DNA of 64,000 nt from Thermoanaerobaculia bacterium (GCA_034664845.1 JAXDGW010000047.1:16369-80368), one strand, 5' to 3'. Counted from the first letter of the stretch, positions 19,498 to 39,560 are shown. Notes: generated by a model not told the origin, from the letters alone. Program-made: numbers and translations.

Positions 19498-20655
19498 ATG
19501 ATCGAGACCCGCATCGCCCGCCGTTACCTCTGGGCCGCTCGCAAGCGGGCGCATACGGCGTTTCTATCGTCGATCTCGATGCTGGGGCTCGCAGTCGGCG
19601 TGGCCACGCTGCTCATCTCGCTGGCGCTGATGGCGGGTTTGCAAGGGCAGATCAAGCAGCGGCTGATTGCTTCGAGTCCGCAACTGCTGATCGAGCCGGC
19701 GGGATCGCCGACAATCGAAAACGCGGCGGGGATCGAGAAGGCAGCGCGATCGATGGGCGTTCGCGACGTTCGTCCGCTCGTCAGCGGCATCGGCTGGGGC
19801 GCGAACGACCGGGAGCGGCGCGGGCGGCCAATGCGGATCCGTTCGGGTTCGCCGGGCGCGTTGCGCTCCAGTGACGAAATCGCGGTGACGCGCGACTTTG
19901 CCGCTGCGATCTCGCTCGACGTTGGCGACACGATCACGGTCGTCTCGCCGCGTACCCGCCTGACGCCGTTCGGTCCGATGCCGGTGTGGCGGAAGTATCG
20001 GATCGCGCATCTTCTCGCCGCATCGACCGACGAACAGGCCGCGGATGGCGTCCTGAGTCTGGCCGAGACCGAGAGCTTTTTCGGGACCGGCGGCAAGCCG
20101 ACCTCGATCGAAATGTACGGGCCCGAGGAGCGCGCCGAGGAGGTTCAGGCGGCGCTGGCGGGGCAGTTTCCCGGCGCGCAGGTCAAGACGTGGAAGGAGA
20201 TCAACCGGCCGCTCTTTCTGGCGCTGCGGCTGGAGAAGATCGTGATGTTCGTGACGATCTCCCTCATCATTTTTGTGGCCGCGCTGAATCTGATCTCGTC
20301 GCTCTCCATGCTCATCCTCGAAAAGCGCCCCTCCGTCGGCGTTCTGCGAACCCTCGGCGCAACAGAGCGGACGATCCTGATGATCTTTCTCGAAGTCGGC
20401 CTCCTCATCGGCATCTCCGGCACGATCCTCGGCAACGTTTTCGGCTTGAGCGCGTCGTGGATCATCGATCACTACCACCTCGTGCCGCTTCCCGCCGGCA
20501 TCTATCCCATCGCGTATCTGCCGCTGACGATCGATCCGTCGGACGTTCTCGGCGTCAACGCGGTGGCGATCATCCTGTCGATCATCGCCACCTGGTATCC
20601 GGCGCGGATGGCCTCGCGGCTCGATCCGATCGCCGCGATCCGGGAGGAAGCGTGA
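19498..20655 (+). CDS. LolC/E-type (FtsX/MacB family) ABC permease
   Basis: ISMLGLAVGVATL, WKEINRPLFLALRLEK, GVLRTLGA and YPARMASRLDP motifs. Confidence 0.9.
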   Translation: MIETRIARRYLWAARKRAHTAFLSSISMLGLAVGVATLLISLALMAGLQGQIKQRLIASSPQLLIEPAGSPTIENAAGIEKAARSMGVRDVRPLVSGIGWGANDRERRGRPMRIRSGSPGALRSSDEIAVTRDFAAAISLDVGDTITVVSPRTRLTPFGPMPVWRKYRIAHLLAASTDEQAADGVLSLAETESFFGTGGKPTSIEMYGPEERAEEVQAALAGQFPGAQVKTWKEINRPLFLALRLEKIVMFVTISLIIFVAALNLISSLSMLILEKRPSVGVLRTLGATERTILMIFLEVGLLIGISGTILGNVFGLSASWIIDHYHLVPLPAGIYPIAYLPLTIDPSDVLGVNAVAIILSIIATWYPARMASRLDPIAAIREEA

Positions 20656-21689
20656 GACGGAGCTCGCTCGCTGCGGCCATCTTTTTCTTCGCTGCCTCGT
20701 GCGCGAACATCGTGCACCACGATCTGACGTTGACGTTCGACGACCGAGGGGAGCGGGTGACGATCCTTTCGGTGACGTCGATTCCAACAACGAAAGACTC
20801 GCGCGACCGCAAGCGCGACGAGCGGCTGCGCGAAGACATCCTGGCGGGCCGCGACGAGTGGAGCCTTCGGTTCGCCAACGCCAGCCCAGAGGCGGAACGC
20901 GTCACGTTCGAACGTGCCAAAGGCGAGCTGATTCGTGCCGAGCACGTGGCGCGCATCGACGTCGCGGATCTGCAGAAGATCTTTTTCGATGTCGCCGTCT
21001 CGGCCGTCGTGACGCGCGGCGACGGCTGGGCGGAACTGGCCATCTATCCCGGAACCTCGACGCGGGCGACACGGCAGCAGCGCGACGATTCCGAGAGAAA
21101 GTTACGGAATTACTCGCGGCGCGCGGTCCGCTACTTCGACGCAGTGCGCACGATGTACGACTACATGGACGCGCATCCGCCGCGCGCCGAGGCGCTTTTC
21201 ACCGCGCTCTTCCGCGATGCCGACGATCCGAAGCCGTCGCTCATCAGCGACGAGGAGCACGATCTCGTCGAGGCGGCGCGCGCGGCGGTCGACGGCCTGA
21301 CCAAAGACGAAGACACGGACGCGCTCGAAGCGGAAGCCGATCTCGTCTTCAACCCGCTGCCGGCACGGATCGTCGTCCGCATCCCGGGAGAGCCTCTCGT
21401 CGTCGAAGGATTCACGCACGACAAGGAGGGCGAGCTGATCGCCGAGCCACTGTCGCTCCTCGAAGCGATCGCGTCCCTCGAAGGACGCTGGATCACGCCC
21501 GACCCGCTCGCGTTTTCCATCCGGCCGGACGGCGGCGGCGAGCCGGAAAAGGAAGCAGCGCTCATCGCCGCGATGCCGCGAAAGACCATGGCGGTGGTAG
21601 GCGAGATCGAAGTGGCGGACGCGCTCGTCGCGAAGCTGAAGCCGTCGGCGAGGTATCGGGCGCGGTGGATTACGAAGACATCAAATTAG
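20652..21689 (+). CDS. Hypothetical lipoprotein
   Basis: GTG start overlapping the upstream stop; leader ending AASC. Confidence 0.7.
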   Translation: MRRSSLAAAIFFFAASCANIVHHDLTLTFDDRGERVTILSVTSIPTTKDSRDRKRDERLREDILAGRDEWSLRFANASPEAERVTFERAKGELIRAEHVARIDVADLQKIFFDVAVSAVVTRGDGWAELAIYPGTSTRATRQQRDDSERKLRNYSRRAVRYFDAVRTMYDYMDAHPPRAEALFTALFRDADDPKPSLISDEEHDLVEAARAAVDGLTKDEDTDALEAEADLVFNPLPARIVVRIPGEPLVVEGFTHDKEGELIAEPLSLLEAIASLEGRWITPDPLAFSIRPDGGGEPEKEAALIAAMPRKTMAVVGEIEVADALVAKLKPSARYRARWITKTSN

Positions 21690-21737
21690 ACGGTTTCCCC
21701 GAGCGTCTGATTTCGACCATAATTCGCCCTTCCGTCG

Positions 21738-24071
21738 ATGTCCTCCTCACTCGTGACCTATCTCGAGTCGCGGCCAGATACCGCCACGTTCCTGCTCGGC
21801 AGCGAGTTGGGGCGGACGGTGAGCGAGATTTTTCCGCGGGGGGAGACGCTGCTGCCGCGGCCGTACAAGATCTTTCCGGCCGACGAGACACAGGCGCCGG
21901 CGTTCGGCTTTCCTGTTGCCGATGCTTCGGTTTTGCGGGAGCTCGACGCGAAACTTGATCGCTGGCTCTCCGACGAAGTTGCCTGGCAGGCCGGCCGCCA
22001 GCCTGCGGCGAAGGAGAAAGCGCAGCTCGCCAACGGCGTCTACATGAATCAACTGATGCGCCTGGTCGAGAACGCGCTGATGTCGAATCTTCTCAGCGAC
22101 TATCACGCCGTTTTCTGGCTCGCGCATTCGTTCGATCTGGCCCGGCAGTTCTCGTCGATTCCGCGGCGCGTCAGCACCTTCGACACGCAGACCGGCAAGA
22201 CGCAGGGCGACGCCTTCAAGTACCGGATCTTCGCGAAGTGGGCGAACGACACGCGCGAGGCGATGGCGCAACTCGGTACGAAGGCCTCGTCGATTCTCGA
22301 TGGCGAAGAACAGCGCGGCCTGCAGTTCTTCAAGCTGCTCGCGGACGACGTTCTGATTCTCACCGAGGAGTTCATCGGCCCCGATCTGCGGGAGCTGCGC
22401 TCGTTCGTCAACGGCTACTTGCGGCGCGACTTCCAGGCGTTTCGCGACTCGGTCGAGCGGATGCGCGAGATCGCGCTCGACCTCCTCCAGAAAGACCGCA
22501 CCTTCCGGGCGTCGCTGCCGCTCTTCGGCACCGCGCCGGACCAGGGCATTCCCGTCGCACTCCTGCTCGACACGCGTTTCCAGAACTTTCTGTTCGAGCA
22601 GAACGCGATCCAGTCGGCTGTGACACGCGAGGACCGTGAACAGTTTCAACTCATCGCGCGGCGAATTCGCGAGTTCGCCATCCTCAACCAACTGCGCCGC
22701 GGGATCACGATGATGACGGTGCGGTCGGACAATCAGGTCGTCTCCGCCGACAAGCGCGCCAACGTCTACTCGCGATCGACGCGGCCGATGGATTTCGGCC
22801 GGCCGGGCGTGGTCGATCCGATGGTGCATCGCTTCGGCCTGATCTACGACATCTCCAACTTCACCGAGACGCTGGGCAACATCCGGCGCGGCGGCCGGAA
22901 GGAGGAGATCAGCTCCTACCGGCAGATGCTGTTATTCCAGCGCAAGCTCGACTCGATTGCCACACGACACCTCCTCCAGTTCGAGAAGTTCCTCGGCGAT
23001 GGCGCTTTCTACACGACCCGACGCGCGCTCCGGCTCGTTCGCGCCGCCGTCGAGATCCAGCGCTGTTACGCCGACGTTCGCCGCAAAGGCTTCGCGTTCA
23101 ACAAGGGGCTGCGCATCGCCCTCAACTTCGGCTACTACCGCCTCCTGCCGATGAAAGGCAGTGGCAATGAGCGCATCACCGAGTTTTACGGTCCGGGCAT
23201 CGTCGAGCTATCGCGCCTGACGACAGGCAAGGCGAACAAGGAGATCGAGGAGTTCGCCTCATTTCTGCTCACGCACGGTTACGAATCATCGAAGGTGCAG
23301 GCGTTCTTTGCGCCCCTCGAGCGCGGGGTCGACGTCATCGACCACACGCAGCACGCCCGCGAGTTCTACTCGTACGTGAACACCAGCGGCCACCTCGTAA
23401 ACGAAGGGATCGTGGCCTCCTTCTCGCTGCTGCAGGAGCTGTCGAACGATCTGGCGTCGGAAGGGCTGCAGCTGTACCGGCTGCGATCACCGTGGGCGAC
23501 GTACGTCGGCTTCGCGGCGTCGCTGACGGGTCTGGAGTACATCGGCGTGCGCCTCCTCGGGATGGTCTCGCTGAAGGGATTGGACGAGATCGATGTCGGC
23601 GAGATCGTCCCGTTCGCGCCGGGCGACGTCGAAGCCACTCCGATCGACGGCGCGGACCCGCTGTTTCTTGTGATCCGCCAGGAGTTCCACCAGGACCGCG
23701 ATCCCGAGGGACCGCTGGCCGAGGCGACGGAGCTGGATGACAGCACCACGAGCGAGCAGGCCATCACCTCGGAGCTCGTGATCTGCCTCCGGAACGAGCC
23801 GGACGGCACCGAGGACGATGTCGTCATCGGCGAGTGGAACCCACGCACCGACGAGCTCCGCTGCCCCTTGCGCTTTCCTCGGGGCGATTTCGTGCGCCTC
23901 TTCGCGCTCAGGGGCGATGTCACCGAGGAGCTTCTGAGCGAACGCCGCGAAACGGTGCGCCATCTCTACAACCGTCTGTCCGACCGCACGCCAACCCCCG
24001 CGGTACCCCTGGCCGATTTCCGCGATTTGTATGCGACGTATGTGCTGGGGGCGGTGGTGGAGAAACTGTAG
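21738..24071 (+). CDS. Large protein with a divergent class III (adenylate/guanylate) cyclase-like domain
   Basis: LIYDISNFT, EKFLGDG, LRIALNFG and FYGPGIVELSRL in canonical order. Confidence 0.7.
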   Translation: MSSSLVTYLESRPDTATFLLGSELGRTVSEIFPRGETLLPRPYKIFPADETQAPAFGFPVADASVLRELDAKLDRWLSDEVAWQAGRQPAAKEKAQLANGVYMNQLMRLVENALMSNLLSDYHAVFWLAHSFDLARQFSSIPRRVSTFDTQTGKTQGDAFKYRIFAKWANDTREAMAQLGTKASSILDGEEQRGLQFFKLLADDVLILTEEFIGPDLRELRSFVNGYLRRDFQAFRDSVERMREIALDLLQKDRTFRASLPLFGTAPDQGIPVALLLDTRFQNFLFEQNAIQSAVTREDREQFQLIARRIREFAILNQLRRGITMMTVRSDNQVVSADKRANVYSRSTRPMDFGRPGVVDPMVHRFGLIYDISNFTETLGNIRRGGRKEEISSYRQMLLFQRKLDSIATRHLLQFEKFLGDGAFYTTRRALRLVRAAVEIQRCYADVRRKGFAFNKGLRIALNFGYYRLLPMKGSGNERITEFYGPGIVELSRLTTGKANKEIEEFASFLLTHGYESSKVQAFFAPLERGVDVIDHTQHAREFYSYVNTSGHLVNEGIVASFSLLQELSNDLASEGLQLYRLRSPWATYVGFAASLTGLEYIGVRLLGMVSLKGLDEIDVGEIVPFAPGDVEATPIDGADPLFLVIRQEFHQDRDPEGPLAEATELDDSTTSEQAITSELVICLRNEPDGTEDDVVIGEWNPRTDELRCPLRFPRGDFVRLFALRGDVTEELLSERRETVRHLYNRLSDRTPTPAVPLADFRDLYATYVLGAVVEKL

Positions 24072-24179
24072 TTTTGCGCAGCCCTGGCGGGCTGCGCGTT
24101 GTCGGTTGTCGGTTGCGTGCGCGGCCTGCGGCCGCGCGTTGTCCGATTCGAGAAGTTGCGGCGCTACTATTGGACGACG

Positions 24180-24221
24180 ATGAAAACCTACACGGCTGTC
24201 GTCGAGGAAGATCCGGAGACG
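24180..24221 (+). pseudogene. HicB antitoxin N-terminal fragment
   Basis: ATG AAA ACC TAC... = MKTYTAVVEEDPET, a typical HicB start; runs into the Uma2 3' end. Confidence 0.55.
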
Positions 24222-24229
24222 GATGAGCA

Positions 24230-24796
24230 CTACGCAGACGGCTCTGCTGCGGCATCGTAGAGGTCGCGGACGTCGAGCCGTGCGTCGATCGAAAGCTCTG
24301 CGCTCCCACCTTCGTCAACGACAGTCGTTCGCCAACCATCTTCTCCGCGCGACCTGACCTCCACGGAGCGCTCGCGGTAAGAGACGAGCACGTACTCACG
24401 CAGGGACGGGAAAGTCTTGTAGTGCTCGAACTTGTCGCCCGAATCGTACTCCTCGGTGCTGCGGCTCAGGACTTCCACGATGAGCGCCGGATTAGTGATC
24501 GCCAACGGGTGAATGCCGTCGATCTCACGTGGCCCGCAGATCGTGACATCGGGATACGTTGTAAGACCGGTGGGTGTGCGAACACGAAGATCGGAATTGT
24601 ACGGACGGCCCTCGCCGCCGCGGAGTTGATGGCCCAGCAAAGTGATCGCGGCCGCCGCGAGCGCTGCGTGTTCGGGCGTGCCGCCCGCCATCGCGTAAAT
24701 CTGGCCGCCGAGGAACTCGTGCTTGACGTTGCTCGACGCCTCGAACCCGAGATACTCCGCGTATGTGTAATTGAGCTTGTGGAGAAGTGCCGGCAT
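24230..24796 (-). CDS. Uma2 family endonuclease
   Basis: HEFLGGQIYAMAGGTPEH, YPDVT, IVEVLSRSTEEYD.GDKFEHY and SLREYVLV motifs. Confidence 0.92.
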   Translation of the reverse strand: MPALLHKLNYTYAEYLGFEASSNVKHEFLGGQIYAMAGGTPEHAALAAAAITLLGHQLRGGEGRPYNSDLRVRTPTGLTTYPDVTICGPREIDGIHPLAITNPALIVEVLSRSTEEYDSGDKFEHYKTFPSLREYVLVSYRERSVEVRSRGEDGWRTTVVDEGGSAELSIDARLDVRDLYDAAAEPSA

Positions 24797-24868
24797 CTTC
24801 GAGGATTATTGCAGGTGTCGATGCGAGGTCGGACGTCGCGGCTGCCAGGCAAGTCCGAAGCGGAGGCA

Positions 24869-24926
24869 GTTAGCCCCCGCCCTCTTACGCCGGAGGTCGC
24901 GGGTTCGAGTCCGGTCTGCCCCGCCA
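24869..24926 (+). pseudogene. Degenerate 3' part of a tRNA-Asp
   Basis: GTTAG...ACGCCGGAGGTCGCGGGTTCGAGTCCGGTCTGCCCCGCCA has a T-arm and CCA; anticodon loop is mutated (CTCTTAC vs CTGTCAC) and the 5' acceptor strand is missing. Confidence 0.7.
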
Positions 24927-25026
24927 ATCTGATGCACGCGCGTCGCGCGCCGTGCGAGCGCGAAGCCGCGTGTAAGCTTTTCGATCGTGCGCGATCTCCT
25001 CCGGTCTCGCGTCGCGGCAACCGTGA

Positions 25027-25986
25027 TCACTCGTCCCAAGGTGCCGGGCCGAGCAACCGACGGCCACTCGGGCGCTCATCATAGAGGTAAGCCTTGGCGG
25101 CTTCGTAAAAGAGCACGATAGAGAACGTCACCGCTACCCAGACCAAGAGGGCCTCGATCGGGAAGACTGCCGCATGCACCATTCCGTTGCAGTCGACGGC
25201 CGTCCCATACGACCAGGCGAGGATGCTCTTTCCAATCATGCCCGCAGGCTGATAGCGCCACCAATACCCGGGAATGCCGAGCGTCACCTCCCAGAGCAAA
25301 GACGTCAGCAGGACGTATACGCATGTGAGCGACAAAGCTTGCCAGTTGACGAGGTCCTTCACTGCACGGTACAGAATCATCGCCGGGACGAACGCCACCG
25401 CCACGAGAAACGTGTAGTACACGGGAATCCAACCGCCTGTTGCGCCCACGAGTTGCTTTGCAACGATTCCCCCGACGATAAGCGTGATACCCATGAGCGC
25501 CACCGGCCACGAGATCGCTAGGATCTTTCCCGGCTGAGGGATCAGCGGCCGCCGGCGACGAACGTTGTATTCAAACAGCCAGTACTCGTCCGCCCAGAAA
25601 TAAATCAGAGCGATGGCCAGTCCGCCGAGGTAGTAGAAGAAGAATTCCTCGTAGGGGATGCCGAGCAGGCGCCCGACATAGGGATCGGGCCGACGGCAGT
25701 CGAAATCGAGCACCCATTTCCCGAGGCCGAGATCGAGCACGCTTCCCAGCACTAGTACGTAGAGAGCCGTCAGGCCGACGGCTCTGCGCCGCCGCCTGGG
25801 CGGCGGTTCCGAGACCAAGAAAAACCGTGGGAGGATCAAAACAATCGGGATCAGCCAAAGCACAAGGCTCGAGAAGTAGGAACTCTTGAAATTCCACACG
25901 AGGCTCAGGGGGATGAGCCACGAAAGGATGATTCCGACGAGCCAGTCGAACGGGCCCACGCGCTGAAGGACGTTGCGCAGATTCAC
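25027..25986 (-). CDS. Integral membrane protein with two lycopene-cyclase-like domains
   Basis: Repeated D/E...W...G..LGIPYEEFFFY / FPIEALLVW pattern; many TM segments; GTG start overlaps the upstream stop. Confidence 0.65.
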   Translation of the reverse strand: MNLRNVLQRVGPFDWLVGIILSWLIPLSLVWNFKSSYFSSLVLWLIPIVLILPRFFLVSEPPPRRRRRAVGLTALYVLVLGSVLDLGLGKWVLDFDCRRPDPYVGRLLGIPYEEFFFYYLGGLAIALIYFWADEYWLFEYNVRRRRPLIPQPGKILAISWPVALMGITLIVGGIVAKQLVGATGGWIPVYYTFLVAVAFVPAMILYRAVKDLVNWQALSLTCVYVLLTSLLWEVTLGIPGYWWRYQPAGMIGKSILAWSYGTAVDCNGMVHAAVFPIEALLVWVAVTFSIVLFYEAAKAYLYDERPSGRRLLGPAPWDE

Positions 25987-28019
25987 GGCTCGATCTTCAC
26001 GCCCGCGGCGAAGAACCACGGATTCTTCTTGAATGTATTATCGAATGCCGAACCGGCGGCGAAATATCCCATCTTCATCGTCACCGTCACCGACTCCGGC
26101 GTCTCGATGTCGAAAACTACGGCGTATTCATTGCCGATGTTTTTCGTGGGATAAGGCGAATTGCGGAATTCGAAATGGCGGATGGTGAACGTAGTGGACT
26201 TCGAGACGATGTCGCTTTCGTCGATGTTGAGCGCTCTGGCAAAGAGCTCCAGCGGCGAGTGGTCGTTATTTCGATATTCGAGCGCATAGTAGATCTTGTT
26301 CTGCAAGCCGCTGCCGAACGTTTTTTTCGCCGGATCTCCAGCACCGGCAATGAGCGGCTTCGACAGCTTCTTGAAGAACAAGAGGCCGGGGCCAAAGGTG
26401 CCAGTTTCTCCCAGATAGCCTTCGTCCACATTCGTCGTCGATTCCCTGTCACTCGGGCCGACGGCCACCGTCGCGCCAAACGTGTAGTGGACGATGGGTT
26501 TCTTCGCTTCATCCAAGTCCTCGATCTGATTGCTCATCGTCAGCTTCAGGAGTCCCGACGTTCCCCGTCCGCGGACTTTCTCGTTTTTCGTCTCGACGTT
26601 GTTTGCGTCCGTCTTGATTCCGACGCTGTGCGACCGGCTGCTGCGGAAGAGAGCGAGACTGCCGCCCAGAACCTTCTTCTGAGAAACCATCGGATAACTG
26701 AAGAATGTCTCCGCGCCCAGCGTGCGGTAGACGTGAGGATCCTCTCGGCTATCGTCCGTGCCGTAGACACCGGTGATGTTCATCGATCGCAGGAAGTCGG
26801 TCGGCAGCTCGATGTCGTTGACCTGCATGAGAAAACTCGACGCGTCGCCATCGGTTTTCGGTTTGAAATCGCGCTCTCGTTTGATGATGTAGGAGCCCAC
26901 GTAGTTAGCTAGGCGCGTCGGGTAGCTCAGTGTGAAGCCCTGGCCGCTTTCAGTGATAGCCAGACCGTCCGCGGGAGCGGCGAAGTCATATTTGCCGAAA
27001 TTCAGAGTGAGGAGGTTGAGCGAAAAGACGCTCAATTTGTACTGATCAGCGGTGACCTGTCCCTTCTCCTCCTGGTTGCCAAAGTCGGCGCCGTTGTACG
27101 AAAAACTCAGTTCTGCCTTGTACCTGTCTGTGGCCTTGTGCTCCACGTCGATTCGCGCCGATCCAGGGAAATGCGTCTTGCGATGGCCGTCGTACGGATT
27201 CGCGTCACTGAGAACATCCTTCCCCTCAGAGTCAGTGAAGCGTGGCTCGATAACCATGTCCAGTGAGGCGGCAGGAGCCACAGTGGTGCCGCCCTCGGGC
27301 GGATCGATCGGTTTAAGCTTGCCGTCGGCGTCGACGTCCGAGTCCGTTCTCAAATACCCTTCAGCGTTCGTCAACTTCTTGTTGTCCTGGAAGAGCCGAG
27401 CCCTGAATCGGATCGTCTGCTGATTGAACAGGGCGGCGAAGATGCGCGACGGCAGAAGAGCTTCTTTGTTCGGCTGAACCGTGAGAACGATGTCGCAGGC
27501 AACTACATGATCGATCGCTACGGCCTTCGTCAAATCGACGTCGCCCTTGCCCGCCTCGTGAAGCAGCGACTTGATCTTGCAGCCTCTCAAATGTTCGACA
27601 CCGAAGTACTTTTGTGCCTCCTTGACTACAGGATCATCCACGCTGATCGTTCCGGGATTCGACCCCTTGAACACCAGTTCCCCCGTGTCTTCGCGCACGA
27701 CATCTCCCTGGAACGGCGCAGGTAAGGTGACGATGAATTTTCGATCGCTCGTGCGATTCAGAAATTCGACGCCGAAGTACTGGGCTGACGACCCCGCCGG
27801 TACGACGCCAGCGTTTCGATCCCATACCGACGCCGGACGTCTCGGGTTCACGAACCGGACATCGGAAACCCCGGTATCGTTGAGAGGCACCTTCAACGTA
27901 TTTTTTGCGTTCCTCGTGGCAGCGAGCGGACGTGTCGCGTTCTGGGTCGTTTGTGCGACGGCAAACGTTCCCCACAAAGACAGTCCGATACAGACGGCCA
28001 GCAGGACGCGCTTCACCAT
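25983..28019 (-). CDS. Exported protein, probable outer-membrane beta-barrel C-terminal half
   Basis: Signal peptide MVKRVLLAVC...AVA; amphipathic beta strands and terminal NPWFFAAGVKIEP. Confidence 0.6.
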   Translation of the reverse strand: MVKRVLLAVCIGLSLWGTFAVAQTTQNATRPLAATRNAKNTLKVPLNDTGVSDVRFVNPRRPASVWDRNAGVVPAGSSAQYFGVEFLNRTSDRKFIVTLPAPFQGDVVREDTGELVFKGSNPGTISVDDPVVKEAQKYFGVEHLRGCKIKSLLHEAGKGDVDLTKAVAIDHVVACDIVLTVQPNKEALLPSRIFAALFNQQTIRFRARLFQDNKKLTNAEGYLRTDSDVDADGKLKPIDPPEGGTTVAPAASLDMVIEPRFTDSEGKDVLSDANPYDGHRKTHFPGSARIDVEHKATDRYKAELSFSYNGADFGNQEEKGQVTADQYKLSVFSLNLLTLNFGKYDFAAPADGLAITESGQGFTLSYPTRLANYVGSYIIKRERDFKPKTDGDASSFLMQVNDIELPTDFLRSMNITGVYGTDDSREDPHVYRTLGAETFFSYPMVSQKKVLGGSLALFRSSRSHSVGIKTDANNVETKNEKVRGRGTSGLLKLTMSNQIEDLDEAKKPIVHYTFGATVAVGPSDRESTTNVDEGYLGETGTFGPGLLFFKKLSKPLIAGAGDPAKKTFGSGLQNKIYYALEYRNNDHSPLELFARALNIDESDIVSKSTTFTIRHFEFRNSPYPTKNIGNEYAVVFDIETPESVTVTMKMGYFAAGSAFDNTFKKNPWFFAAGVKIEP

Positions 28020-28373
28020 GATCTCTCCCCCTTGGTTTACCATGATCATCCCCCTTGATTAGGAGAGGCTTGATTGCCTGCTTTCCCTACCCACCGCTCG
28101 CACGACAGCCCCGATCACGAAAAAAACTCGGACGGCGACATGGCGCCGTAAAAGAAAGGAAAGTGTTGCCGGTGGATGAGGGGTAAATCCTCGCTCGGCT
28201 CCGCGTGGACTTCGGCGAATAACTGTCGCGTCCAGCGAACAAGTAGTGAACGGATGCTTCAATCAGCAACAACGGCAATTTGTCAGACGAATTTTGCGAA
28301 GGACGAGCTGGGTCGGCGAATGTGCGAGCAACCAGCTGCGGTTGGAAAACGACCGGCAAAGGTCTCAGCGCTC

Positions 28374-28490
28374 TCTACGTAGACTCGATTCCAGGCTTTC
28401 GCGGCGGGCACTCTCAAAGGGAAGCCTTGGACGAGCCGAACGACAATCTTCGCGAAGTCGTTGAGATGTTGCTGGAGGACGGCGAGCCGC
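28374..28490 (+). pseudogene. HicB antitoxin C-terminal remnant
   Basis: LYVDSIPGFRGGHSQREALDEPNDNLREVVEMLLEDGEP matches the HicB core pattern; no proper start. Confidence 0.7.
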
Positions 28491-28690
28491 ACATATCTCG
28501 CCGGTTCTGATCCGCAGGATTGCCGACGAGATCGGCATTCCGATCGACGACTTCCTCACTCAACGCTGAAGAACGGGCACCGCCACCATCGTCATCCCAC
28601 CCCGACAACGCGGCGACAGCCGCAATCAACCGACAACAGACAACGCGCGCCGCGCCAGCGGCGCGCAATTCAGTTACCATCAATAACCCA

Positions 28691-31150
28691 ATGCGCGTCG
28701 ACCATGAGAAGCGGGAGATCCTCTGTTCGGTTGGGGATCTCGTTTATGAATCGACCTACCGGCGCATCGGTGTCGAGCGTGGGGACGGGTTCCGGCGGAT
28801 GTGGATCGGGCAGGACATTCACACCAAGCGCGCGGAACAGCGGACCGGCGAGGATGCGAATTACCGCGCCGAGGTGCATGTCGTCCATCGGACGCAACTT
28901 GGGGCGTGGACGGTCATCATCACCGGGCGCATCGACGGGCTGTCGGTCGACAGGGCGGCGAAGCGCGTCTCGATCGAAGAGGTGAAATCGATTCATTTCG
29001 ACCTCGAGCTCGAAGCGCTCTATCGCTCCGACAAGCTCCAGCGGCATCTATTTCAATTGCTGCTGTACTCGTACTTTCTATCCGGACAGCCCGACTTCGA
29101 GGGCTTTACATTTGCGCCGCAACTCGTACTGATCGATCTCATCTCCGGCGACGCCAAGACGATCGACGCCGAGTTCGATCGGGAAGTCGTTCTCAGCACG
29201 CTCAACGACCGGCTGGAGCGGCTCATCACAGACCTCGAGACGGCGTCGGCGCTGCGCGTGGCCAAGCGCGCCTTCGCCGACACGTTGTCGTTTCCGTTCG
29301 ACACGATGCGACACGGGCAGCAGGAAATCGTCTCCTCCGTCGCGAGGACGGTCTATCAGCGCGAGGCGCTCCTGATCTCCGCGCCGACCGGCATCGGCAA
29401 GACGATGGCCGTCCTCTATCCGGCCGTGAAGCAGGCGCTGAAGCTCGGGAAGAAGCTCTTCTTCCTGACGTCGAAAACGATGCAGCAGGATGCTGCGGTC
29501 GAAGCGCTGCAACTGCTCAACGACGGCTCGTTTCGCGTGCTGCGCATCCGCGCCAAGCAGAAAATGTGCGCGCACTCCGAGATGATCTGCCACGAGGATT
29601 TCTGCCCGTACGCGGCGCGCTACTCGGAGAAGATGCAGCGCACGGATCTCGTCAATCATCTCGTGACGTCGATGAGCTATTTCGATCCGGCCCTCACGTT
29701 CGAGATGGCCAAATCGAACGAGGTCTGCCCGTTCGAGGTCTCGCTGGAGCTGATCGAGCAGGCCGATGTGATCGTCTGCGATTACAACTACATCTTCGAT
29801 CCGTACGTCGGTTTGAAGGCGTACCAGCAGGAGAACGACTACGGCGATTGCGTGCTCGTCGTCGATGAGGCGCACAACCTGATCGACCGCGGCCGCGGCT
29901 ACTACTCGCCCGAGTTGCACGAGCAGCTCTTCGATCGCATCCGCAATCATCTGGCCGGCCGCAATTGCTGGCTCGACGGCGCCGACGAGTTGCTGGAGCA
30001 ACTTCGCGATCACTTCCGCACGCTGGCCGAGGCGATCGATGAGGAGGCGGGAGTGAAGCAGGCGCTCTGCGAGCCGGACCGCGAGCTTTTCGTCGAACAG
30101 CGGACGGAGTGGGAGCGGCTGATCATTCACTACATCGGCTGGAAGATCGAAAACCGCATCGCCGAGGAAGACGATCCGGTGATCGATTTCTACTTCCGCC
30201 TGATGAAGGTCGCCAACCTGATGACGGAGAAGGGCGACGAGTTCGCGCACCTCATCGAGCGCACGCCGGAAGGTCTCAAACTCAAGATCTTCTGCAAAGA
30301 CCCCTCGCGCTTTCTCGGCAGGATCTTTGACTCCGCGCACGCCACGATCGCGCTCTCCGCTACGCTCGAGCCTTTCGATTTCTATCGCAAGCTCCTCGGA
30401 TTTCCCACCGATCGAACGACCGAGCTCGCGTTGCCCTCACCGTTCCCGCGCGAAAACCGCAAGATCGTCGTCATCTCCGAGGTCGATACGTCGTACAAGA
30501 AGCGCGCGGACTCGTATGACCGCATCGCCGACAACGTCGCCTCCATCGCCGAGGCCGGCGACGGCAACTTCCTGGCGCTCTTTCCCAGCTACGCGTTTCT
30601 GCGCGAGATCTCCGACCGCATGCCGCCCATTCGCAAACACGTGATGGTGCAGCGCACGGACATGACCGACTACGAGCGCAACGCCATGCTCGACATTCTT
30701 CGCGAGCGCTCGCGCAAGGGCAACCTCATCATGGCCGTCTCCGGCGGCATGTACGCGGAAGGGATCGACTACCGCGGCGACATGCTCTCCGGCGTCATGG
30801 TCATCGGCCCGGCGCTGCCTCAGGTCAGCTTCGAACAGGAGCTCCTCAAGCAGTACTACGACGAGCAGTACGGATCAGGTTTCGAGTTCGCGTACCTGAT
30901 CCCGGGCATGACGCGCGTCGTGCAGTCGGCCGGCCGCGTGATCCGCAGCGAAACCGACATCGGCGTGATCGCTCTGCTCTGCCGCCGCTTCACGCAGCAG
31001 CCGTATACGCAATTCTTCCCCACCGATTGGTACGATGAATCGCCGCGCGAGCTGATCTCGAAGAAGCCGGCCAGCGAGATCCGCGCGTTCTTCGAAGCGA
31101 AAGCGTTAGCCTACGAAGCCGCGCACACGCCGCAGTTGCGGCTGGTGTGA
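28691..31150 (+). CDS. PD-(D/E)XK nuclease fused to an Fe-S DinG/XPD (Rad3) family helicase
   Basis: N-terminal GRIDGL..IEEVKS..QLLLY; Walker A APTGIGKT; Cys cluster (KMC..IC...FCPY...CPFE); DEAH; EGID; QSAGRVIR. Confidence 0.9.
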   Translation: MRVDHEKREILCSVGDLVYESTYRRIGVERGDGFRRMWIGQDIHTKRAEQRTGEDANYRAEVHVVHRTQLGAWTVIITGRIDGLSVDRAAKRVSIEEVKSIHFDLELEALYRSDKLQRHLFQLLLYSYFLSGQPDFEGFTFAPQLVLIDLISGDAKTIDAEFDREVVLSTLNDRLERLITDLETASALRVAKRAFADTLSFPFDTMRHGQQEIVSSVARTVYQREALLISAPTGIGKTMAVLYPAVKQALKLGKKLFFLTSKTMQQDAAVEALQLLNDGSFRVLRIRAKQKMCAHSEMICHEDFCPYAARYSEKMQRTDLVNHLVTSMSYFDPALTFEMAKSNEVCPFEVSLELIEQADVIVCDYNYIFDPYVGLKAYQQENDYGDCVLVVDEAHNLIDRGRGYYSPELHEQLFDRIRNHLAGRNCWLDGADELLEQLRDHFRTLAEAIDEEAGVKQALCEPDRELFVEQRTEWERLIIHYIGWKIENRIAEEDDPVIDFYFRLMKVANLMTEKGDEFAHLIERTPEGLKLKIFCKDPSRFLGRIFDSAHATIALSATLEPFDFYRKLLGFPTDRTTELALPSPFPRENRKIVVISEVDTSYKKRADSYDRIADNVASIAEAGDGNFLALFPSYAFLREISDRMPPIRKHVMVQRTDMTDYERNAMLDILRERSRKGNLIMAVSGGMYAEGIDYRGDMLSGVMVIGPALPQVSFEQELLKQYYDEQYGSGFEFAYLIPGMTRVVQSAGRVIRSETDIGVIALLCRRFTQQPYTQFFPTDWYDESPRELISKKPASEIRAFFEAKALAYEAAHTPQLRLV

Positions 31151-31161
31151 GAAGGAAGACG

Positions 31162-31737
31162 ATGACGAATACGGACAGCGCACGTTTCACTCTTCACACG
31201 TCACTCGTCACCCTTATTTTTCTCGCTTCCTGCGCAACCACCCCGGCCGCACCTCCAGCCCCGCGCCTCCCGCAATGGAACACCATGCCCGCCGCGGTGC
31301 TGGATGCATTCTGCGCTAACTTCCGCGATGAAGGGATCTCGACATCGACCACCGTCAACGTCGTCAAGAACGCGCAGCGCCTGCTGATCACGACTGCGTC
31401 GATGCAGACACTGGCGGAGTCCCAGTTCTACCACGGCAAAGTCGATCCGGCCCGCGCCGCAACTGCGGCTGCCGAGGAAGCGGTGGAGATGCCGATCACG
31501 ATCACCCGCGGTTGCGCGTGGCGGCCGATCGAACCGCAGACTGGCGCGCGCTACACCGACACGATGACGCTCGAGCTTTCGCCTCCCATCGCGAACCCGT
31601 TCGCCCGCAATTCTGCCGGCCTCTTCGCCCGCATGGCCCTCGGCGGCGAAGCTCCGACCTGGTACTGGATGCCGCTTGTTCCGCGCGGCGACACGTGGAC
31701 GCCAGGCCGGTTGACGATGCTGGCGTACCGGCAGTGA
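31162..31737 (+). CDS. Hypothetical lipoprotein
   Basis: Lipobox LASC. Confidence 0.7.
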   Translation: MTNTDSARFTLHTSLVTLIFLASCATTPAAPPAPRLPQWNTMPAAVLDAFCANFRDEGISTSTTVNVVKNAQRLLITTASMQTLAESQFYHGKVDPARAATAAAEEAVEMPITITRGCAWRPIEPQTGARYTDTMTLELSPPIANPFARNSAGLFARMALGGEAPTWYWMPLVPRGDTWTPGRLTMLAYRQ

Positions 31738-31841
31738 TTCGCTGAAAAGGCGGTCAATTTCCCCCGCCGCAGCTCTTCCCGACTGCTCGAATGCGGAAAC
31801 TGCAGGGCTTGTCCGTCTTCAGACAAAAAAGGAAGGTACCT

Positions 31842-32699
31842 ATGAATGCTCTGCCGGTCGCCACGGTATTCGCACTCGTGCTGTCATCTGGATTCGCCCT
31901 CGGCCAGGAAACGGCTGCCGACGTTCTCACACCGGTGGCCACCTCTGAGCCCTACATCCGCAATATCGCTACTTTCCTCCAGCAGTGTCCTGACCGCGAT
32001 CCGGCATATGCGGAGATCAGCAGAGACTTCGAGATCCGCAGAAATGACAAGGCCACTGCTGCGCCGGCATGCACCGAGCCAATCTCGGCAATTCCGATCG
32101 CGCAGTACACCGATGAGTTGATTGTGCGCCAGGGACTGAGAGTCATCTATTACATGGACCGGGGGCAGTCCGGGCATCTCCCCTGGACCTCCGGCGCCTT
32201 GTACCCCTGGATGAAATCGAAAATCCAGGGGATCAACATCGTCGATGGCGTGGTCGGCGGGTACTGTTGCGCCACGCTCGATGGGAAGCGCTTCATCGTC
32301 ATCGGAAACCAGAACGACTCCAATCGAGACTTTGATCGGACATGGTCTGGAATCTCAGGAAACATCGACTTTTACACCCACGAAGCGCGTCACGTCGATG
32401 GCTTCCCCCACAGCTCCTGCTGCGGCATCGCCAATGGTTGCGACGACAACTTCGATCCGAACAATCTATCCGCGTACGGAGTGCAATGGTGGCTCAACAG
32501 CCTATGGCTCAACGGCACGATCAATGTGGGTGACGCATGTGCAGGGTCAGCGAAGAGCAGTGCCCAGTGGTTTCTAAGCGGAATGAACTCGCAATACAGG
32601 GGCCGGTTCTGCACAATCAAACCCGACCTCGTGTCGTTGCCCGCGGTCCCGGAGGGAAGTTGCCCTCCTCAGCCACGACACAGGTCAGCGAAAAAATAA
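31842..32699 (+). CDS. Secreted Cys-rich protein with an HExxH motif (putative zincin)
   Basis: Signal peptide, YTHEARHVDGFPH, multiple Cys, basic C-terminal tail PRHRSAKK. Confidence 0.65.
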   Translation: MNALPVATVFALVLSSGFALGQETAADVLTPVATSEPYIRNIATFLQQCPDRDPAYAEISRDFEIRRNDKATAAPACTEPISAIPIAQYTDELIVRQGLRVIYYMDRGQSGHLPWTSGALYPWMKSKIQGINIVDGVVGGYCCATLDGKRFIVIGNQNDSNRDFDRTWSGISGNIDFYTHEARHVDGFPHSSCCGIANGCDDNFDPNNLSAYGVQWWLNSLWLNGTINVGDACAGSAKSSAQWFLSGMNSQYRGRFCTIKPDLVSLPAVPEGSCPPQPRHRSAKK

Positions 32700-32785
32700 T
32701 CTGGCAACAGCGCTACGCGCGGTCCTTGTCCCTTCTCGCCTCGGTATGATCTGTCGCAACGATTCGTGCCGAGGAGAGCAGGCCA

Positions 32786-33208
32786 ATGCAACCAGTCATC
32801 GTCCGCGCCGCAGATTCGCTTCGTAACGACATCGAGGCCGGCCCGCACCATCTCATCGGTGACGAGCCGGCGAGTGCCGGGGGGACGGAGTTGGGGCCGA
32901 CGCCGTACGACTTCCTCGCCGCGGCCCTCGGCACCTGCACATCGATGACGTTGCGCGTCGTCGCGAAGCGGGAGAACATTCCGCTCGAAGGTGTCGAGAT
33001 CACGGTCGAGAACGACCGAATGCACGCGAAAGACTGCGCCGATTGCCTCACCACAAGCGGTTACATCCACCAGTTCACCGTCGCGATCAAGCTCATCGGC
33101 AACCTGACGCCGGTGCAAAGGCAGCGTATGCTGGACGTCGCGGCGCGTTGCCCGGTCAACAAAACGCTCCGCTCCGAGATCCGCATCGACGAACGTCTCG
33201 CCGACTGA
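32786..33208 (+). CDS. OsmC family protein
   Basis: DEPASAGG.ELGPTPYDFL..ALGTCTSMT...RCPV motifs. Confidence 0.92.
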   Translation: MQPVIVRAADSLRNDIEAGPHHLIGDEPASAGGTELGPTPYDFLAAALGTCTSMTLRVVAKRENIPLEGVEITVENDRMHAKDCADCLTTSGYIHQFTVAIKLIGNLTPVQRQRMLDVAARCPVNKTLRSEIRIDERLAD

Positions 33209-33245
33209 GTTGCGCGGGTCATCAACAACGGCAAAGATTTGTCGA

Positions 33246-33716
33246 ATGTCACTACCGGAAGAAACACGGCAACGGGTGCTGGTCGCCGATGACGATCAGT
33301 CGATCCGCCAACTCGTCTGCACGATCGTCAAGCGCGAGGATCTCGCCTGCGATGCCGCCGGCGACGGCCGCGAGGCCATCGAGTATCTCGGCAAGCACGA
33401 GTACGCGGTCGTCCTGCTCGATTTGATGATGCCGCGCCTCGACGGCTTCGGTGTCATCGCCTGGCTGAAGGAGAATCCCCCGCCGGTCAAACCGATCGTG
33501 CTGGTGATCACCGCCTACGCCGATCAGCGCTTCAAGGAAGTCGACTCCGATCTCGTTTCCGGCATCGTTCGCAAACCATTCGAAGTCGCTGACCTCGGCA
33601 ATCTGATCCGCCTCTGCGTGACCGGATTCAACGAGGAGCTGAGCCAGAAGCTCTACCTGTCGAAAGACCGCGCCATCCGCGATTTCGCGCGCGGCGAGGA
33701 CGATCGGGAGACGTAG
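33246..33716 (+). CDS. Single-domain response regulator
   Basis: VLVADDD, LLDLMMP and KPF receiver motifs. Confidence 0.9.
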   Translation: MSLPEETRQRVLVADDDQSIRQLVCTIVKREDLACDAAGDGREAIEYLGKHEYAVVLLDLMMPRLDGFGVIAWLKENPPPVKPIVLVITAYADQRFKEVDSDLVSGIVRKPFEVADLGNLIRLCVTGFNEELSQKLYLSKDRAIRDFARGEDDRET

Positions 33717-33837
33717 TTTTGCGGTAGCGAGGGCGCGTGGTCACGCGGTCTCGTGGTCTCTTAGCCCGCAGTTCTCCCACTTCTAGCGAAATTGCGGGTA
33801 CTGCGTTCAATCGAGCTCCTTCTGAAAGCGAATCGCT

Positions 33838-33904
33838 CACCACAGAGGCACTGAGAGCACAAAGATCATCATCGAAAACTCCGTGATCTCTGCGTCTCTG
33901 TGGT
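33838..33904. repeat. Inverted 9-mer repeat hairpin
   Basis: ACCACAGAGGCACTGAGAGCACAAAG...CTCCGTGATCTCTGCGTCTCTGTGGT; same family as 8381-8458. Confidence 0.8.
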
Positions 33905-33978
33905 TCAAGGTTGCGAGAAACGCGGTTACTGGCGCGGTCCGCAGCGCGCCGCATGACTGCGCCAACCGCGCTACCCCG

Positions 33979-35832
33979 CTACCGCGAAGACCAATTCTCG
34001 ATCCAGTACTGCAGGATGATCAGCGCCCAGAGCGGTTTCGCGTTATTCGCCCGGCCCGCGCGATGCGCGGCGAGGAGCTCGGCTACGACTCTTTCATCGA
34101 GCAATCCCTGCGACCGCAGCCGCTCCGGAGCAAGCAGGCGATCGACTTCGGATCGCAATCCCTCGTTCAGCCAGCTCGCGATCGGCACGCTCAGTCCGCG
34201 CTTGCGGCGGTAGATCACGTCCTTCGGCAGCCAGCGCTCGGCCGCTTTCTTCAGCACCCACTTTGTCTCGAAACGGCGAAGGCGCAGATCCGTTGGAAGC
34301 GAGAGCGCGAAACGCGTCACGTCGCGGTCGAGGAACGGCGCGCGCGCTTCGACCGACGACAGCATCGTGGCGCGGTCCACCTTCACGAGCAGGTTGTCGC
34401 GAAGGTAGCTGCGGTAATCGAGCAGCATCGCTCCGGCCAGCGGATCGGTGGCCGCGGGCGCTACCGGAAGGTCCGGCAACTCCGCGCGGAGTTTATAGAC
34501 ATCGGCTGACAATCCCGTTCCGAACCACGCCAGATGACGCTCGATCCACGGTTTTTCGGCATCGGATACAAAGCGCTTCAGCAGGAACTCCAGCGTCACC
34601 TTCTTCGTCGACGACGGCACGCGCTGGACCATGCGCCGCAGGGTTGCGCGAACGAACGACGGCATCGCGTCGTACAGCGGCGCGAGCTTGTGGCCAATGT
34701 AGGTCGGGTAGCCGCCGAACAACTCGTCCGCACCCTCGCCGCTGAGGACGACTTTCACATGCTGCCGCGCCGCCCGCGCGAGCAGAAACGTCGGCAGGAT
34801 GGCGGGATCGGCCAGCGGTTCGGCGACGCCTCGCACGACGCTCTGCAACGCCTCGAGCAGCGTGCGCGCGTCGGTCGGCACCGGCACGTAACGAGTTTGG
34901 ATCCGCTTCGCCAACTCCTCGGCGACCGGACTCTCGTCGTACGACTGCTCCGCAAACGCTGCCGAGTATGTATGCACCTTGTCGACGCCGATGTACTTCG
35001 CCGCCAGCGTCGCCAGGATCGACGAGTCGAGTCCGCCGCTGGTGAAAACGCCGACCGGAACGTCGGCCATGACCTGCTTCTCCACCGCGCGCTCGACGAG
35101 CTTCCGCGTCTCCGCAACCGCTTCACGCGCCGAGATTTTCTCGATGCGAAACGATTCCGCATCCCAGTAGCGGACCGCTTCCTGTCCGCTCTTCGTAAAC
35201 CGCACGAACGTTCCCGCCTCGACGCGGCGGACGTCGCGAAACGGAGTGCGCGGCTCGGGGATGTATCCGAGGCGCAGATATTCGCCGATGGCGACGGGAT
35301 CGAGCTCGCGGCTGACGTCCGGATGCCGCAACAAACATTGCAGCTCCGACGCAAAAATCACCTCGGCGCCGGAAGTCCCTCCGACCTTCGCGTAAAACAG
35401 CGGCTTCTCGCCGGCGCGGTCTCGCGCGAGGATGAGCGTGTGCGTGCGAGCATCCCAGATCGCCAGACCAAACATCCCGTCGAGCTCCGGAATCGCAGCG
35501 ACACCGCGTTCCAGATACAGCGGCAGAATCGTCTCGACATCCGACTGCGAGCGGTAGGGATAGTCGGGATAGCGCTTCCGAATCTCGGGCGCGTTGTAAA
35601 TCTCGCCATTGCACTCGAGCCAGACCTGCGAACCGGGAGCGGCAAAGGGCTGATCCGCGCGCTCATGAAGATCGATGATACGAAGCCGCTCCGTGCCGAT
35701 GACCGCATCGGGGCGCGTGAACTCCGCGTGACCATCCGGCCCGCGGTGCCGCAGCGCCTCCCCCATGTACCCCAGCACCTCGGGGTGACGCAGCGCCGCG
35801 CCGTCGGCGACCATTCCATAGATTCCACACAT
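33979..35832 (-). CDS. asnB: Asparagine synthase (glutamine-hydrolysing) family amidotransferase
   Basis: MCGI start, HRGPD, NGEIYN, SGGLDSS and SGEGADELFGGY motifs. Confidence 0.93.
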   Translation of the reverse strand: MCGIYGMVADGAALRHPEVLGYMGEALRHRGPDGHAEFTRPDAVIGTERLRIIDLHERADQPFAAPGSQVWLECNGEIYNAPEIRKRYPDYPYRSQSDVETILPLYLERGVAAIPELDGMFGLAIWDARTHTLILARDRAGEKPLFYAKVGGTSGAEVIFASELQCLLRHPDVSRELDPVAIGEYLRLGYIPEPRTPFRDVRRVEAGTFVRFTKSGQEAVRYWDAESFRIEKISAREAVAETRKLVERAVEKQVMADVPVGVFTSGGLDSSILATLAAKYIGVDKVHTYSAAFAEQSYDESPVAEELAKRIQTRYVPVPTDARTLLEALQSVVRGVAEPLADPAILPTFLLARAARQHVKVVLSGEGADELFGGYPTYIGHKLAPLYDAMPSFVRATLRRMVQRVPSSTKKVTLEFLLKRFVSDAEKPWIERHLAWFGTGLSADVYKLRAELPDLPVAPAATDPLAGAMLLDYRSYLRDNLLVKVDRATMLSSVEARAPFLDRDVTRFALSLPTDLRLRRFETKWVLKKAAERWLPKDVIYRRKRGLSVPIASWLNEGLRSEVDRLLAPERLRSQGLLDERVVAELLAAHRAGRANNAKPLWALIILQYWIENWSSR

Positions 35833-35870
35833 CGCCAGCGACTATAGCAAGCACCCGCCCGTCCACCCTC

Positions 35871-36158
35871 GCTGTCATTCCGAGAGGGCGGGGCGGCGGG
35901 CGGCGAGGAATCCCCTGCCGGCGCAGCGCCGCGAAGAATCCTGCACGAAGGACCGACCCTCGGAGCGCCGAGTCCTACGTGCTGTCATTCCGAGCGGGCG
36001 GGGCGGCGGGGGGCGAGGAATCCCCTGCCGACGCAGCGAAGATCGCTCGTCCGCAATGCTTCTTCGGTCTGTTCAGATGCTGACGCGGTTGATCGACCCT
36101 CGCTGCGTCGTCGGGGGATTCCTCGCCCACCACACGCCCGCCCGCTCGGAATGACAGC
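35871..36158. repeat. GCTGTCATTCCGAG-type REP-like cluster (two direct copies, one inverted)
   Basis: Copies at 35871-35928 and 35981-36038; inverted copy at 36101-36158. Confidence 0.85.
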
Positions 36159-36177
36159 CACGGCGGGCATGCGCGGC

Positions 36178-39555: not shown

Positions 39556-39560
39556 ACGAA

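Follow-up and report, generated by a model that had tools for sequence, protein, structure and literature searches.

Inverted hairpin arms around accessory genes of a Thermoanaerobaculia bacterium as a probable split dimer of a REP/BIME-like repeat family

In the genome of an uncultured Thermoanaerobaculia bacterium a pair of inverted, hairpin-forming arms encloses about 4.5 kb of accessory genes between a conserved 777-aa open reading frame (ORF) and a helicase gene, and the question raised by this locus is whether the arms are the ends of a mobile island or have come to flank foreign DNA in some other way. The whole stretch of DNA that was analyzed, hereafter the window, is 64,000 nt long (GCA_034664845.1 JAXDGW010000047.1:16369-80368) and is part of a 5.9-Mb genome (G000) of 144 contigs with 62.5% GC. 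The initial annotation of the window had read the arms mainly as structure-conserved ends that are recognized in trans, possibly as single-stranded hairpins like the substrates of HUH enzymes or integrons, and had offered as a second alternative one intergenic palindrome whose loop accumulated cargo. The data described below favor the second alternative. We consider it likely, with a probability of roughly 0.78, that the two arms represent one split dimer, facing inward, of a lineage-restricted family resembling repetitive extragenic palindromes (REP) and bacterial interspersed mosaic elements (BIME), and that the spacer of this dimer passively accumulated the cargo. The coordinates of the features are given in Table 1, where genomes are designated by G numbers and contigs by C numbers.

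When the left arm, read on the plus strand, was compared position by position with the right arm, read on the minus strand, 35 of the 42 positions were identical, which confirmed both the quoted sequences and the identity reported initially. Six of the seven differences fall in the 9-bp stem, where they make up three compensatory changes of base pairs (A-T to G-C, G-C to C-G, and C-G to G-C), and the seventh is a G/T difference in the tail. The first-hairpin stems of both arms fold completely, and the earlier description of a compensatory stem with TGGC loops was correct. The second hairpin followed by GTTGTC, which had also been described for each arm, was seen at 24119-24143 on the plus strand and at 28623-28604 on the minus strand, and the folding energies of the two-module arms were -45.6 and -36.1 kcal/mol. 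In a repeat search the arm pair was the longest inverted repeat of the region, with a length of 48 nt, 81% complementarity, and a distance of 4,499 nt between its halves. The 22-nt tail matched twice within the 64-kb window, compared to 0.01 matches expected, while the covariance model R1, which is described below, gave scores of 75.3 bits for the right arm and 68.3 bits for the left arm (over 24066-24148), versus 11 bits for the next match in the window. No target duplication was seen at the arm edges, and an Rfam search of positions 23500-29300 at E <= 1 returned no match. The placement of the arms was also as originally stated, since the left arm begins 2 nt past the TAG of the 777-aa ORF and the right arm adjoins the helicase start, but the label of cyclase given to the 777-aa ORF could not be verified.

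The search of the host genome showed that the arms are not private to this locus and belong instead to a repeat family of which at least 140 copies were counted. In this genome the 18-nt tail occurs 83 times in exact form, and a 22-nt core gave 170 fuzzy matches. The covariance model R1 was built from 42 arms, namely the two window arms and 40 sites, one per contig, that were picked from those 68 of 142 sites in which the stem directly before the tail had at least 8 bp. When G000 was scanned with this model, which was a check proposed in the initial annotation, at least 140 matches were obtained at E <= 0.01 among the best 150 of 6,464 candidates, to which the scoring was limited. The usual unit consists of a stop codon, TT, a 9-bp all-GC stem, a loop of 3-5 nt (mostly 4), the tail GTTGTCGGTTGTCGGTTG, and a small hairpin with GTTGTC. 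In the 42 aligned arms 96.6% of the cells of helix 1 were paired, and seven of the nine pairs varied on both sides; the covariation score was 0.388 versus 0.121 in shuffles, with none of 500 shuffles scoring as high. The stem variant of the left arm recurs at G000:C54:15842, and that of the right arm at G000:C121:10319 and 10659. Because both window stems recur elsewhere, and because the copies vary while staying paired, the stem difference between the two arms is a trait of the family. Hence, compensatory stem variation is family-wide and is no signature of the window pair. The family is apparently undescribed in uncultured Thermoanaerobaculia; one limited search of the literature on repetitive or palindromic repeats of Thermoanaerobaculia found no paper naming the taxon, which is not proof of absence.

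The size of the family and the architecture of its units could be observed directly. Sixty-eight of 148 sites were located directly after the stop codon of an ORF of at least 150 codons, as compared to 4.8% of 3,000 random positions. Among 83 neighboring pairs of sites on the same contig, 43 faced inward, 12 faced outward, and 28 were in tandem. The distance between the tails of the inward pairs was at most 150 bp in 18 cases, 151-700 bp in 17, and 0.7-2 kb in six; the remaining ones were the window pair, at 4,546 bp, and one pair beyond 10 kb, which makes the window pair the widest inward pair under 10 kb. No outward pair was closer than 700 bp. Of the 42 inward pairs with a distance of up to 12 kb, 10 had both arms following an ORF, 22 had one such arm, and 10 had none, and since the ORF-following arms vary in this way among pairs, the inward pairing is a property of the element and does not simply reflect convergent genes. 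The family sites also included tandem arrays and second-hairpin modules. The spacers at G000:C26:6936-7935, C28:25016-25457, C64:37018-37516, C112:5112-5849, and C128:41349-42285 contain another interspersed repeat family, with 80-180 non-self blastn matches in the genome, and the spacers at C144, C121, C54, and C53 harbor further repeat families. This genome has intergenic regions that are nests of several repeat families.

The placement of the units and their inward pairing are the architecture of REP dimers and BIMEs. The accessible part of the work on these elements in PMC3733652, on which the following comparison is based, describes REPs as lying near the 3′ ends of upstream ORFs, as forming inverted dimers between whose partners DNA gets inserted, and as having sub-families with alternative complementary stem residues. 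The arm family resembles the REPs and BIMEs of Enterobacteria and Pseudomonas (the GTAG and CGTC super-families) in being a short GC-rich imperfect palindrome with tens to hundreds of extragenic copies, which immediately follow ORFs in the gaps between co-directional or convergent genes, and among which inverted dimers dominate. It also shares with them the alternative complementary stem residues, the mosaics with other motifs, and the insertions between dimer partners. The CGTC-type REPs have 8-9-bp stems and 4-5-nt loops, occur mostly as inverted dimers, and have no flanked transposase, and they are matched by the arm family in its 9-bp stem, its 3-5-nt loop, and the lack of a flanked transposase gene. 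On the other hand, the alignment consensus of the arm family has no conserved GTAG head, and its stems are all G-C, while the CGTC REPs have A-T pairs in the first two stem positions. The long conserved tail of GTTGTCG units is a further difference, as it is not described in the accessible part of PMC3733652, and so is the host, an uncultured Acidobacteriota lineage. The arm tail contains TGTC 2 nt after the stem, inside GTTGTC, and its equivalence to the CGTC (TGTC) tag is unconfirmed.

The occurrence of the family among related genomes was compared using R1 matches at E <= 1e-6 among the scored candidates, which were at most the best 118 per genome. The data showed that 12 of 18 congeneric genomes contained matches, with counts from 95 in G015, 90 in G003, and 76 in G004 down to 5 (compared to 115 in G000 under the same limits), while no match was obtained in the other six congeners or in any of 22 genomes of other genera. 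In the R1-negative congeners the flanking genes nearly abut at the orthologous junctions. As 12 of 18 congeners are positive and the other genera negative, the family has expanded within part of one genus.

To see what occupies the same position in relatives, the junction was taken from 13 of the 34 genomes bearing the 777-aa gene, and in 11 of these 13 the helicase gene lies within 12 kb downstream. Both empty and alternative alleles, which the initial annotation had recommended looking for, were directly observed. Six of the 11 relatives (G004, G007, G005, G014, G009, and G020) have a spacer of 100-196 bp; adjacent inward arms are present in G007 and G014, a left arm in G004, and a weak one in G005, while no arms were found at the junctions of G009 and G020. 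In the other five relatives the junction contains unrelated cargo of 0.9-5.3 kb (Table 1). The cargo genes of the window were found at the junction in none of the 11 relatives. The existence of empty and alternative-cargo alleles, of arms without cargo, and of cargo without arms indicates that cargo and arms occur independently. The picture of one intergenic palindrome whose loop accumulated cargo fits these data, with the junction empty in relatives and the arms adjacent in G007 and G014. The cargo of G012 (L019 531-5616) encodes a 976-aa DUF4062-TPR-radical-SAM/SPASM protein, for which PADLOC gave a pVip-like match (3.8e-15), together with a nucleotidyl transferase and an ORF of 358 aa that weakly matched a TIR effector, and it is a candidate defense islet.

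The borders of the foreign DNA in the window were also observed directly, and they do not coincide with the arms. When the HicB-like gene at the G015 junction was aligned with the window by blastn, it matched in two pieces joined at a single point, as L015 1183-1234 corresponds to window 24174-24224 (87%) and L015 1234-1338 to window 28372-28476 (78%). Because both break points map to one position of G015, G000 has a 4,147-bp insertion inside the HicB-like gene, and the borders of this insertion are 110 bp and 255 bp inside the arms. Neither a terminal inverted repeat nor a target duplication was seen by eye at 24225 and 28371. The GC content over 25750-28500 is 55-58%, compared to 61-67% in the flanking genes, and the 330-aa and 688-aa genes are, as judged by their composition, foreign genes of lower GC; the 688-aa gene was matched in one of 40 relatives, at 29% identity. 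The Uma2 part of the insertion (24231-24855) has 91% DNA identity by blastn to G000:C31:114103-114730, and G000 contains 13 Uma2 genes. The tRNA-Asp fragment is 95% identical over 44 nt to the tRNA-Asp(GTC) gene at G000:C103:24170-24246; it scored 15.4 bits with the Rfam tRNA model, under the gathering score, and ARAGORN found no tRNA over 20000-33000. No second copy of the cargo was found in the genome, in which its recurring parts are limited to the Uma2 segment and the tRNA scar. The earlier statement that the cargo contains no integrase or transposase holds, as Uma2 is the only Pfam family between the arms and there is no PF01797 or PF00589 match on the contig. The intact tRNA-Asp(GTC) gene on C103 has a tyrosine-recombinase (integrase) gene about 630 bp downstream (G000:C103:24874-25377). 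An integrative element probably sits at this tRNA gene, to judge from the neighborhood, and given the nearby integrase gene the window fragment looks like an att scar carried from an integrative element. A short open frame (28503-28568) just past the C-terminal HicB-like piece has a helix-like C-terminus and no Pfam match, and could be what is left of a partner gene.

These observations suggest the following course of events, the order of which, like the passive nature of the accumulation, we infer from the comparison of the alleles. The arms would be the two halves of one inward-facing REP/BIME-like dimer, belonging to a repeat family that would have spread within one sub-clade of a Thermoanaerobaculia genus. 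The DNA between the dimer partners would be dispensable and would have been filled in at least two steps that were independent of the arms. As a first step, small toxin-antitoxin-type genes may have entered the spacer, where the HicB/UPF0150-like gene is still present in G015. As a second step, the 4,147-bp mosaic may have been inserted into this gene by illegitimate recombination, which is proposed because no terminal repeats were seen. The apparent island would then be DNA that has piled up and decayed at one of many gene junctions prone to indels, and the lack of a recombinase would follow from its not being moved as a unit. As to the units themselves, we infer that they most likely act in the transcript, as terminators or as hairpins stabilizing 3′ ends, because they are located 2 nt after stop codons, form very stable hairpins, and have a T-containing tail.

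The filling of this junction can also be compared with known forms of gene acquisition. Hypervariable junctions of core genomes, known as islets or hotspots, exchange accessory and defense genes through homologous recombination in the flanks. The locus is like them in having, between two conserved core genes, a junction without a recombinase that lacks any cargo in some species, and in that the filled junctions of others contain unrelated small accessory genes, namely toxin-antitoxin-like genes, Uma2, a dCTP-deaminase-like gene, and a radical-SAM gene with a TIR-like gene, although the present comparison is between species and not between strains. The arm pairs differ from miniature inverted-repeat transposable elements, as their spacers range from about 50 bp to 4.5 kb with differing content and the arm edges of the window pair show no duplication. 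The locus also differs from a tRNA-integrated genomic island, since it has one internal tRNA-Asp 3′ fragment and no integrase, and is not located at a tRNA gene.

Several observations weigh against the explanation by a passively filled dimer. The sites in the covariation alignment were chosen for long stems, so their pairing is partly built in. The HicB/UPF0150 label rests on sub-threshold Pfam scores, as UPF0150 (PF21748) matched over profile positions 21-50 of 64 with E = 0.06 in the window and 6.5e-05 in G015, and the G015 reference gene is itself frameshifted at the same position as the join. When a simple terminator rule (a hairpin followed by 5 T in 8) was applied, one arm of the two passed it, namely the right one, while the left arm has 4 T in 8. 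Finally, the spacers of four further wide inward pairs (C133, C90, C122, and C1) are also species-variable, and at one of them a cargo gene is inverted in two relatives, which means that the dimers could actively promote rearrangement rather than merely tolerate it.

This last point is the basis of the alternative that survives best, although we regard it as unlikely. It holds that the hairpin or cruciform of a dimer breaks DNA or stalls replication, or that the dimer is a preferred target of small mobile repeats, so that spacer DNA is inserted, inverted, and exchanged far more often; the arms would then cause the island, with no dedicated enzyme cutting them. The use of REPs as targets by insertion sequences has been described (PMC1525189, accessible part), and many pair spacers contain other repeat families with 70-180 matches in the genome. 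In all five wide pairs examined, including that of the window, the spacer varies among species, and relatives have short or empty alleles. At C133, for which 16 of 18 congeners were scorable, the gap is 30-112 bp in seven genomes, 226 and 660 bp in two, and filled with 1.6-2.0 kb of other DNA in five. The gene between the inward arms at C133 (128 aa; G000:C133:9038-9627, locus L179) encodes a four-helix bundle and is inverted relative to its flanks in G003 (G003:C1:1518629-1518989) and G015 (G015:C4:153849-154230), as expected from recombination between inverted arms. At C90 the gap is at most 52 bp in eight genomes, 89-186 bp in six, and 366 bp in one, and G003 has shared, diverged cargo; an arm dimer is present in G007 only. 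The spacers of about 100 bp at C90 in G004, G015, and G013 were considered as bare arm dimers, a possibility that was rejected, as they contain another palindromic repeat between arm remnants. The gaps at C122 are 251, 803, 867, and 4,746 bp in the four scorable genomes. The C1 locus provides a stepwise series. The junction is armless in G009 and has an adjacent dimer in G004; in G003 the dimer encloses another repeat, in G000 it encloses a gene insert of 1.2 kb, and G015 has an insert of 2.4 kb. The C1 insert is placed within the spacer, away from the arm edge. The cargo ORF at C1 encodes 356 aa, and its 3′ half (L183 1325-1860) is 92% identical to a copy at another locus of G004 (G004:C69:13321-13855), while the core genes flanking C1 are just 85-86% identical, which hints that this ORF was recently transferred or moved.

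The weight of this variability is reduced by the way in which it was found. The five pairs were picked for being wide, so that their variability is partly selected for. Moreover, when large indels were read from match coordinates in two arm-free 20-kb stretches of the window (40 kb in total), G000 differed from G004 by a minimum of seven indels of 0.5 kb or larger, and from G003 by a minimum of two in the stretch 29000-48999. As arm-free DNA is equally rich in indels, large junction indels are common with or without arms, and we claim no enrichment at the dimers; the finding that five of five wide pairs are variable was accordingly rejected as proof of an active role. The 4.1-kb insertion of the window also lies within a gene and off the palindrome center. 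In G012 and G022 the junction bears cargo with no arm at all. A stronger form of the same idea is that inward dimers are recombinase-free landing pads at stop codons, whose spacers preferentially capture, invert, or swap small genes and miniature repeats. We regard this form as quite unlikely. If it were true, such dimers would seed accessory-gene islets across a whole bacterial clade, and the C1 series would represent its steps.

The initial proposal that the arms are structure-specific cis sites for a trans-acting HUH/Y1 enzyme or an integron-like recombinase, with the enclosed DNA moving as a unit, is very unlikely. In its favor, the stem structure is kept through compensatory changes, and the strong differences in copy number among congeners point to past mobility of the repeat. 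Activity of the RAYT type does exist in the organism, as a genome scan with PF01797 gave 11 Y1_Tnp matches in G000, several of which have on either side other repeats that gave about 40-130 blastn matches in the genome. These loci (Table 1) look like several separate systems of REP doublets forming hairpins with their transposases (REPIN-RAYT), distinct from the arm family. The arm family resembles REPIN-RAYT systems, as far as these are described in the accessible parts of the work of Bertels and Rainey (PMC3116915, PMC3337134), in having two inverted REPs with a short spacer that form one long hairpin, in its lineage-restricted populations, and in its presence in a genome with several Y1 transposase genes that have their own high-copy repeats. 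It differs from them in its highly variable spacers and in that no cognate RAYT gene flanked by the arm repeat was found in 36 Y1 loci, comprising 8 of the 11 in G000 and 28 from relatives. Within 1.5 kb around each of these loci R1 gave two matches only, at 23 bits or less versus 68-93 bits for true arms, and none of the 11 Y1 matches in G000 had the tail motif at a distance of up to 900 bp, save for one partial match. The arm family is thus transposase-orphan by adjacency.

In integrons the attC sites are in direct orientation and form arrays that adjoin the integrase gene. The arms do resemble attC sites in being palindromes conserved more in structure than in sequence and in flanking cargo without its own recombinase; they are inverted, however, the borders of the cargo are not at the arms, and none of the nine tyrosine recombinase matches (PF00589) in G000 is on the contig of the window. 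Joints that skip about 4.5 kb in mapped metagenome contigs were considered as excision products and rejected as cross-mapping of other dimers; their sides were just 20-29 nt long, often with foreign letters between them and with 90% likeness. The contigs came from two soil metagenome runs, one of which is probably the source of the window while the other shares 5% of its sequence words, and no RNA run containing the locus was found. The reading of the arms as ends of a mobile island is further contradicted by the insertion borders inside the arms, by the cargo occurring as a unit nowhere else in the genome, with its 688-aa gene not found in 39 of 40 relatives, by the relatives that have arms without cargo or cargo without arms, and by stem compensation being family-wide. 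That the arms are two independent intrinsic terminators alike by convergence is highly improbable, for although they adjoin gene ends and the right one satisfies the hairpin-plus-T rule, sequence conservation of the 18-nt tail and of the second hairpin extends over more than 100 copies, the family is confined to part of one genus, and the right arm faces away from any gene end, with the preceding minus-strand ORF lying inside the helicase gene.

Table 1. Features of the window, filled junctions of relatives, and Y1_Tnp loci of the host genome
Feature	Position	Strand	Description
777-aa upstream gene (initially labeled cyclase)	21738..24071	+	Conserved ORF; family unconfirmed
Left arm	24074..24115	+	9-bp GC stem, TGGC loop (24076-24097), tail GTTGTCGGTTGTCGGTTG; 2 nt after stop
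Left-arm second module	24116..24143	+	8-bp hairpin (24119-24137), then GTTGTC
HicB/UPF0150-like pseudogene, N-terminal 15 codons	24180..24224	+	Cut off by insertion; blastn versus G015
Mosaic insertion	24225..28371	.	4,147 bp; actual cargo event
Uma2-family (PD-(D/E)XK-like) gene	24230..24796	-	Pfam PF05685, E = 8.7e-28
tRNA-Asp 3′ fragment and 4 nt beyond	24887..24930	+	att-like scar, no functional tRNA
330-aa predicted membrane protein	25027..26019	-	No Pfam match; sub-threshold lycopene-cyclase-domain match only
688-aa protein, hydrophobic N-terminus	25983..28049	-	No Pfam, NCBIfam or PADLOC match
HicB/UPF0150-like pseudogene, C-terminal piece	28372..28510	+	blastn versus G015
Right-arm second module	28604..28626	-	5-bp hairpin, 4-nt loop, then GTTGTC (minus-strand reading)
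Right arm	28627..28668	-	9-bp GC stem, TGGC loop, tail GTTGTCTGTTGTCGGTTG; ends 22 nt before helicase start
XPD/DinG-like helicase	28691..31150	+	Pfam Helicase_C_2, DEAD_2, HBB; NCBIfam rad3/DinG
G003 junction			2.3 kb cargo; ORFs without known identity; right arm only
G015 junction			0.9 kb cargo; DUF4160, DUF2442 and UPF0150/HicB-like gene; right arm only
G018 junction			1.4 kb cargo; weak arm-like sites only
G012 junction			5.3 kb cargo; DUF4062-TPR-radical-SAM/SPASM protein, nucleotidyl transferase, weak TIR-like ORF; no arm
G022 junction			1.2 kb cargo; dCTP-deaminase-like gene; no arm
Y1_Tnp (IS200/RAYT-like) genes	G000:C3:16937-17275, C42:3661-3999, C120:47076-47321, C51:74915-75142, C76:8714-9052		With own repeats

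The genes on both sides of the junction are conserved. The 777-aa gene is present in 34 of the 41 genomes searched (G000 included), and it had no match in Pfam, NCBIfam, PDB sequences, or PADLOC; the label of cyclase is unconfirmed, the only lead being a protein-atlas one to Guanylate_cyc with a score of 0.94 and 157 shared features. The helicase matched typeIV_DinG in PADLOC (1.9e-108) and is 75-94% identical in 11 relatives. As the tblastn matches in all 11 begin at residue 1, the start at the ATG at 28691 is supported. The N-terminal part of about 200 aa (window 28691-29290) had no family match. The two genes are neighbors throughout the genus, and also in G020 and G022, which represent two other genera of the family; this kept adjacency suggests that they may form a functional pair. 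A further large indel adjoins the locus in G004, which has about 9.4 kb of extra DNA (G004:C5:93300-102741) immediately upstream of the 777-aa gene, compared to 17 bp (window 21700-21740) and no arm in G000.

The identification of the arms as a probable split REP-type dimer removes a false lead, because structure-conserved inverted ends around recombinase-free cargo had here the appearance of an undescribed mobile system. For annotation, the family model marks the 3′ ends of genes and explains many of the contig breaks in these metagenome assemblies. G000 combines a transposase-less family with several classic transposase-flanked ones, and it is therefore a natural test case for the origin and spread of such REPs. 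The organism could also show whether REP dimers bias the landing sites of accessory genes.

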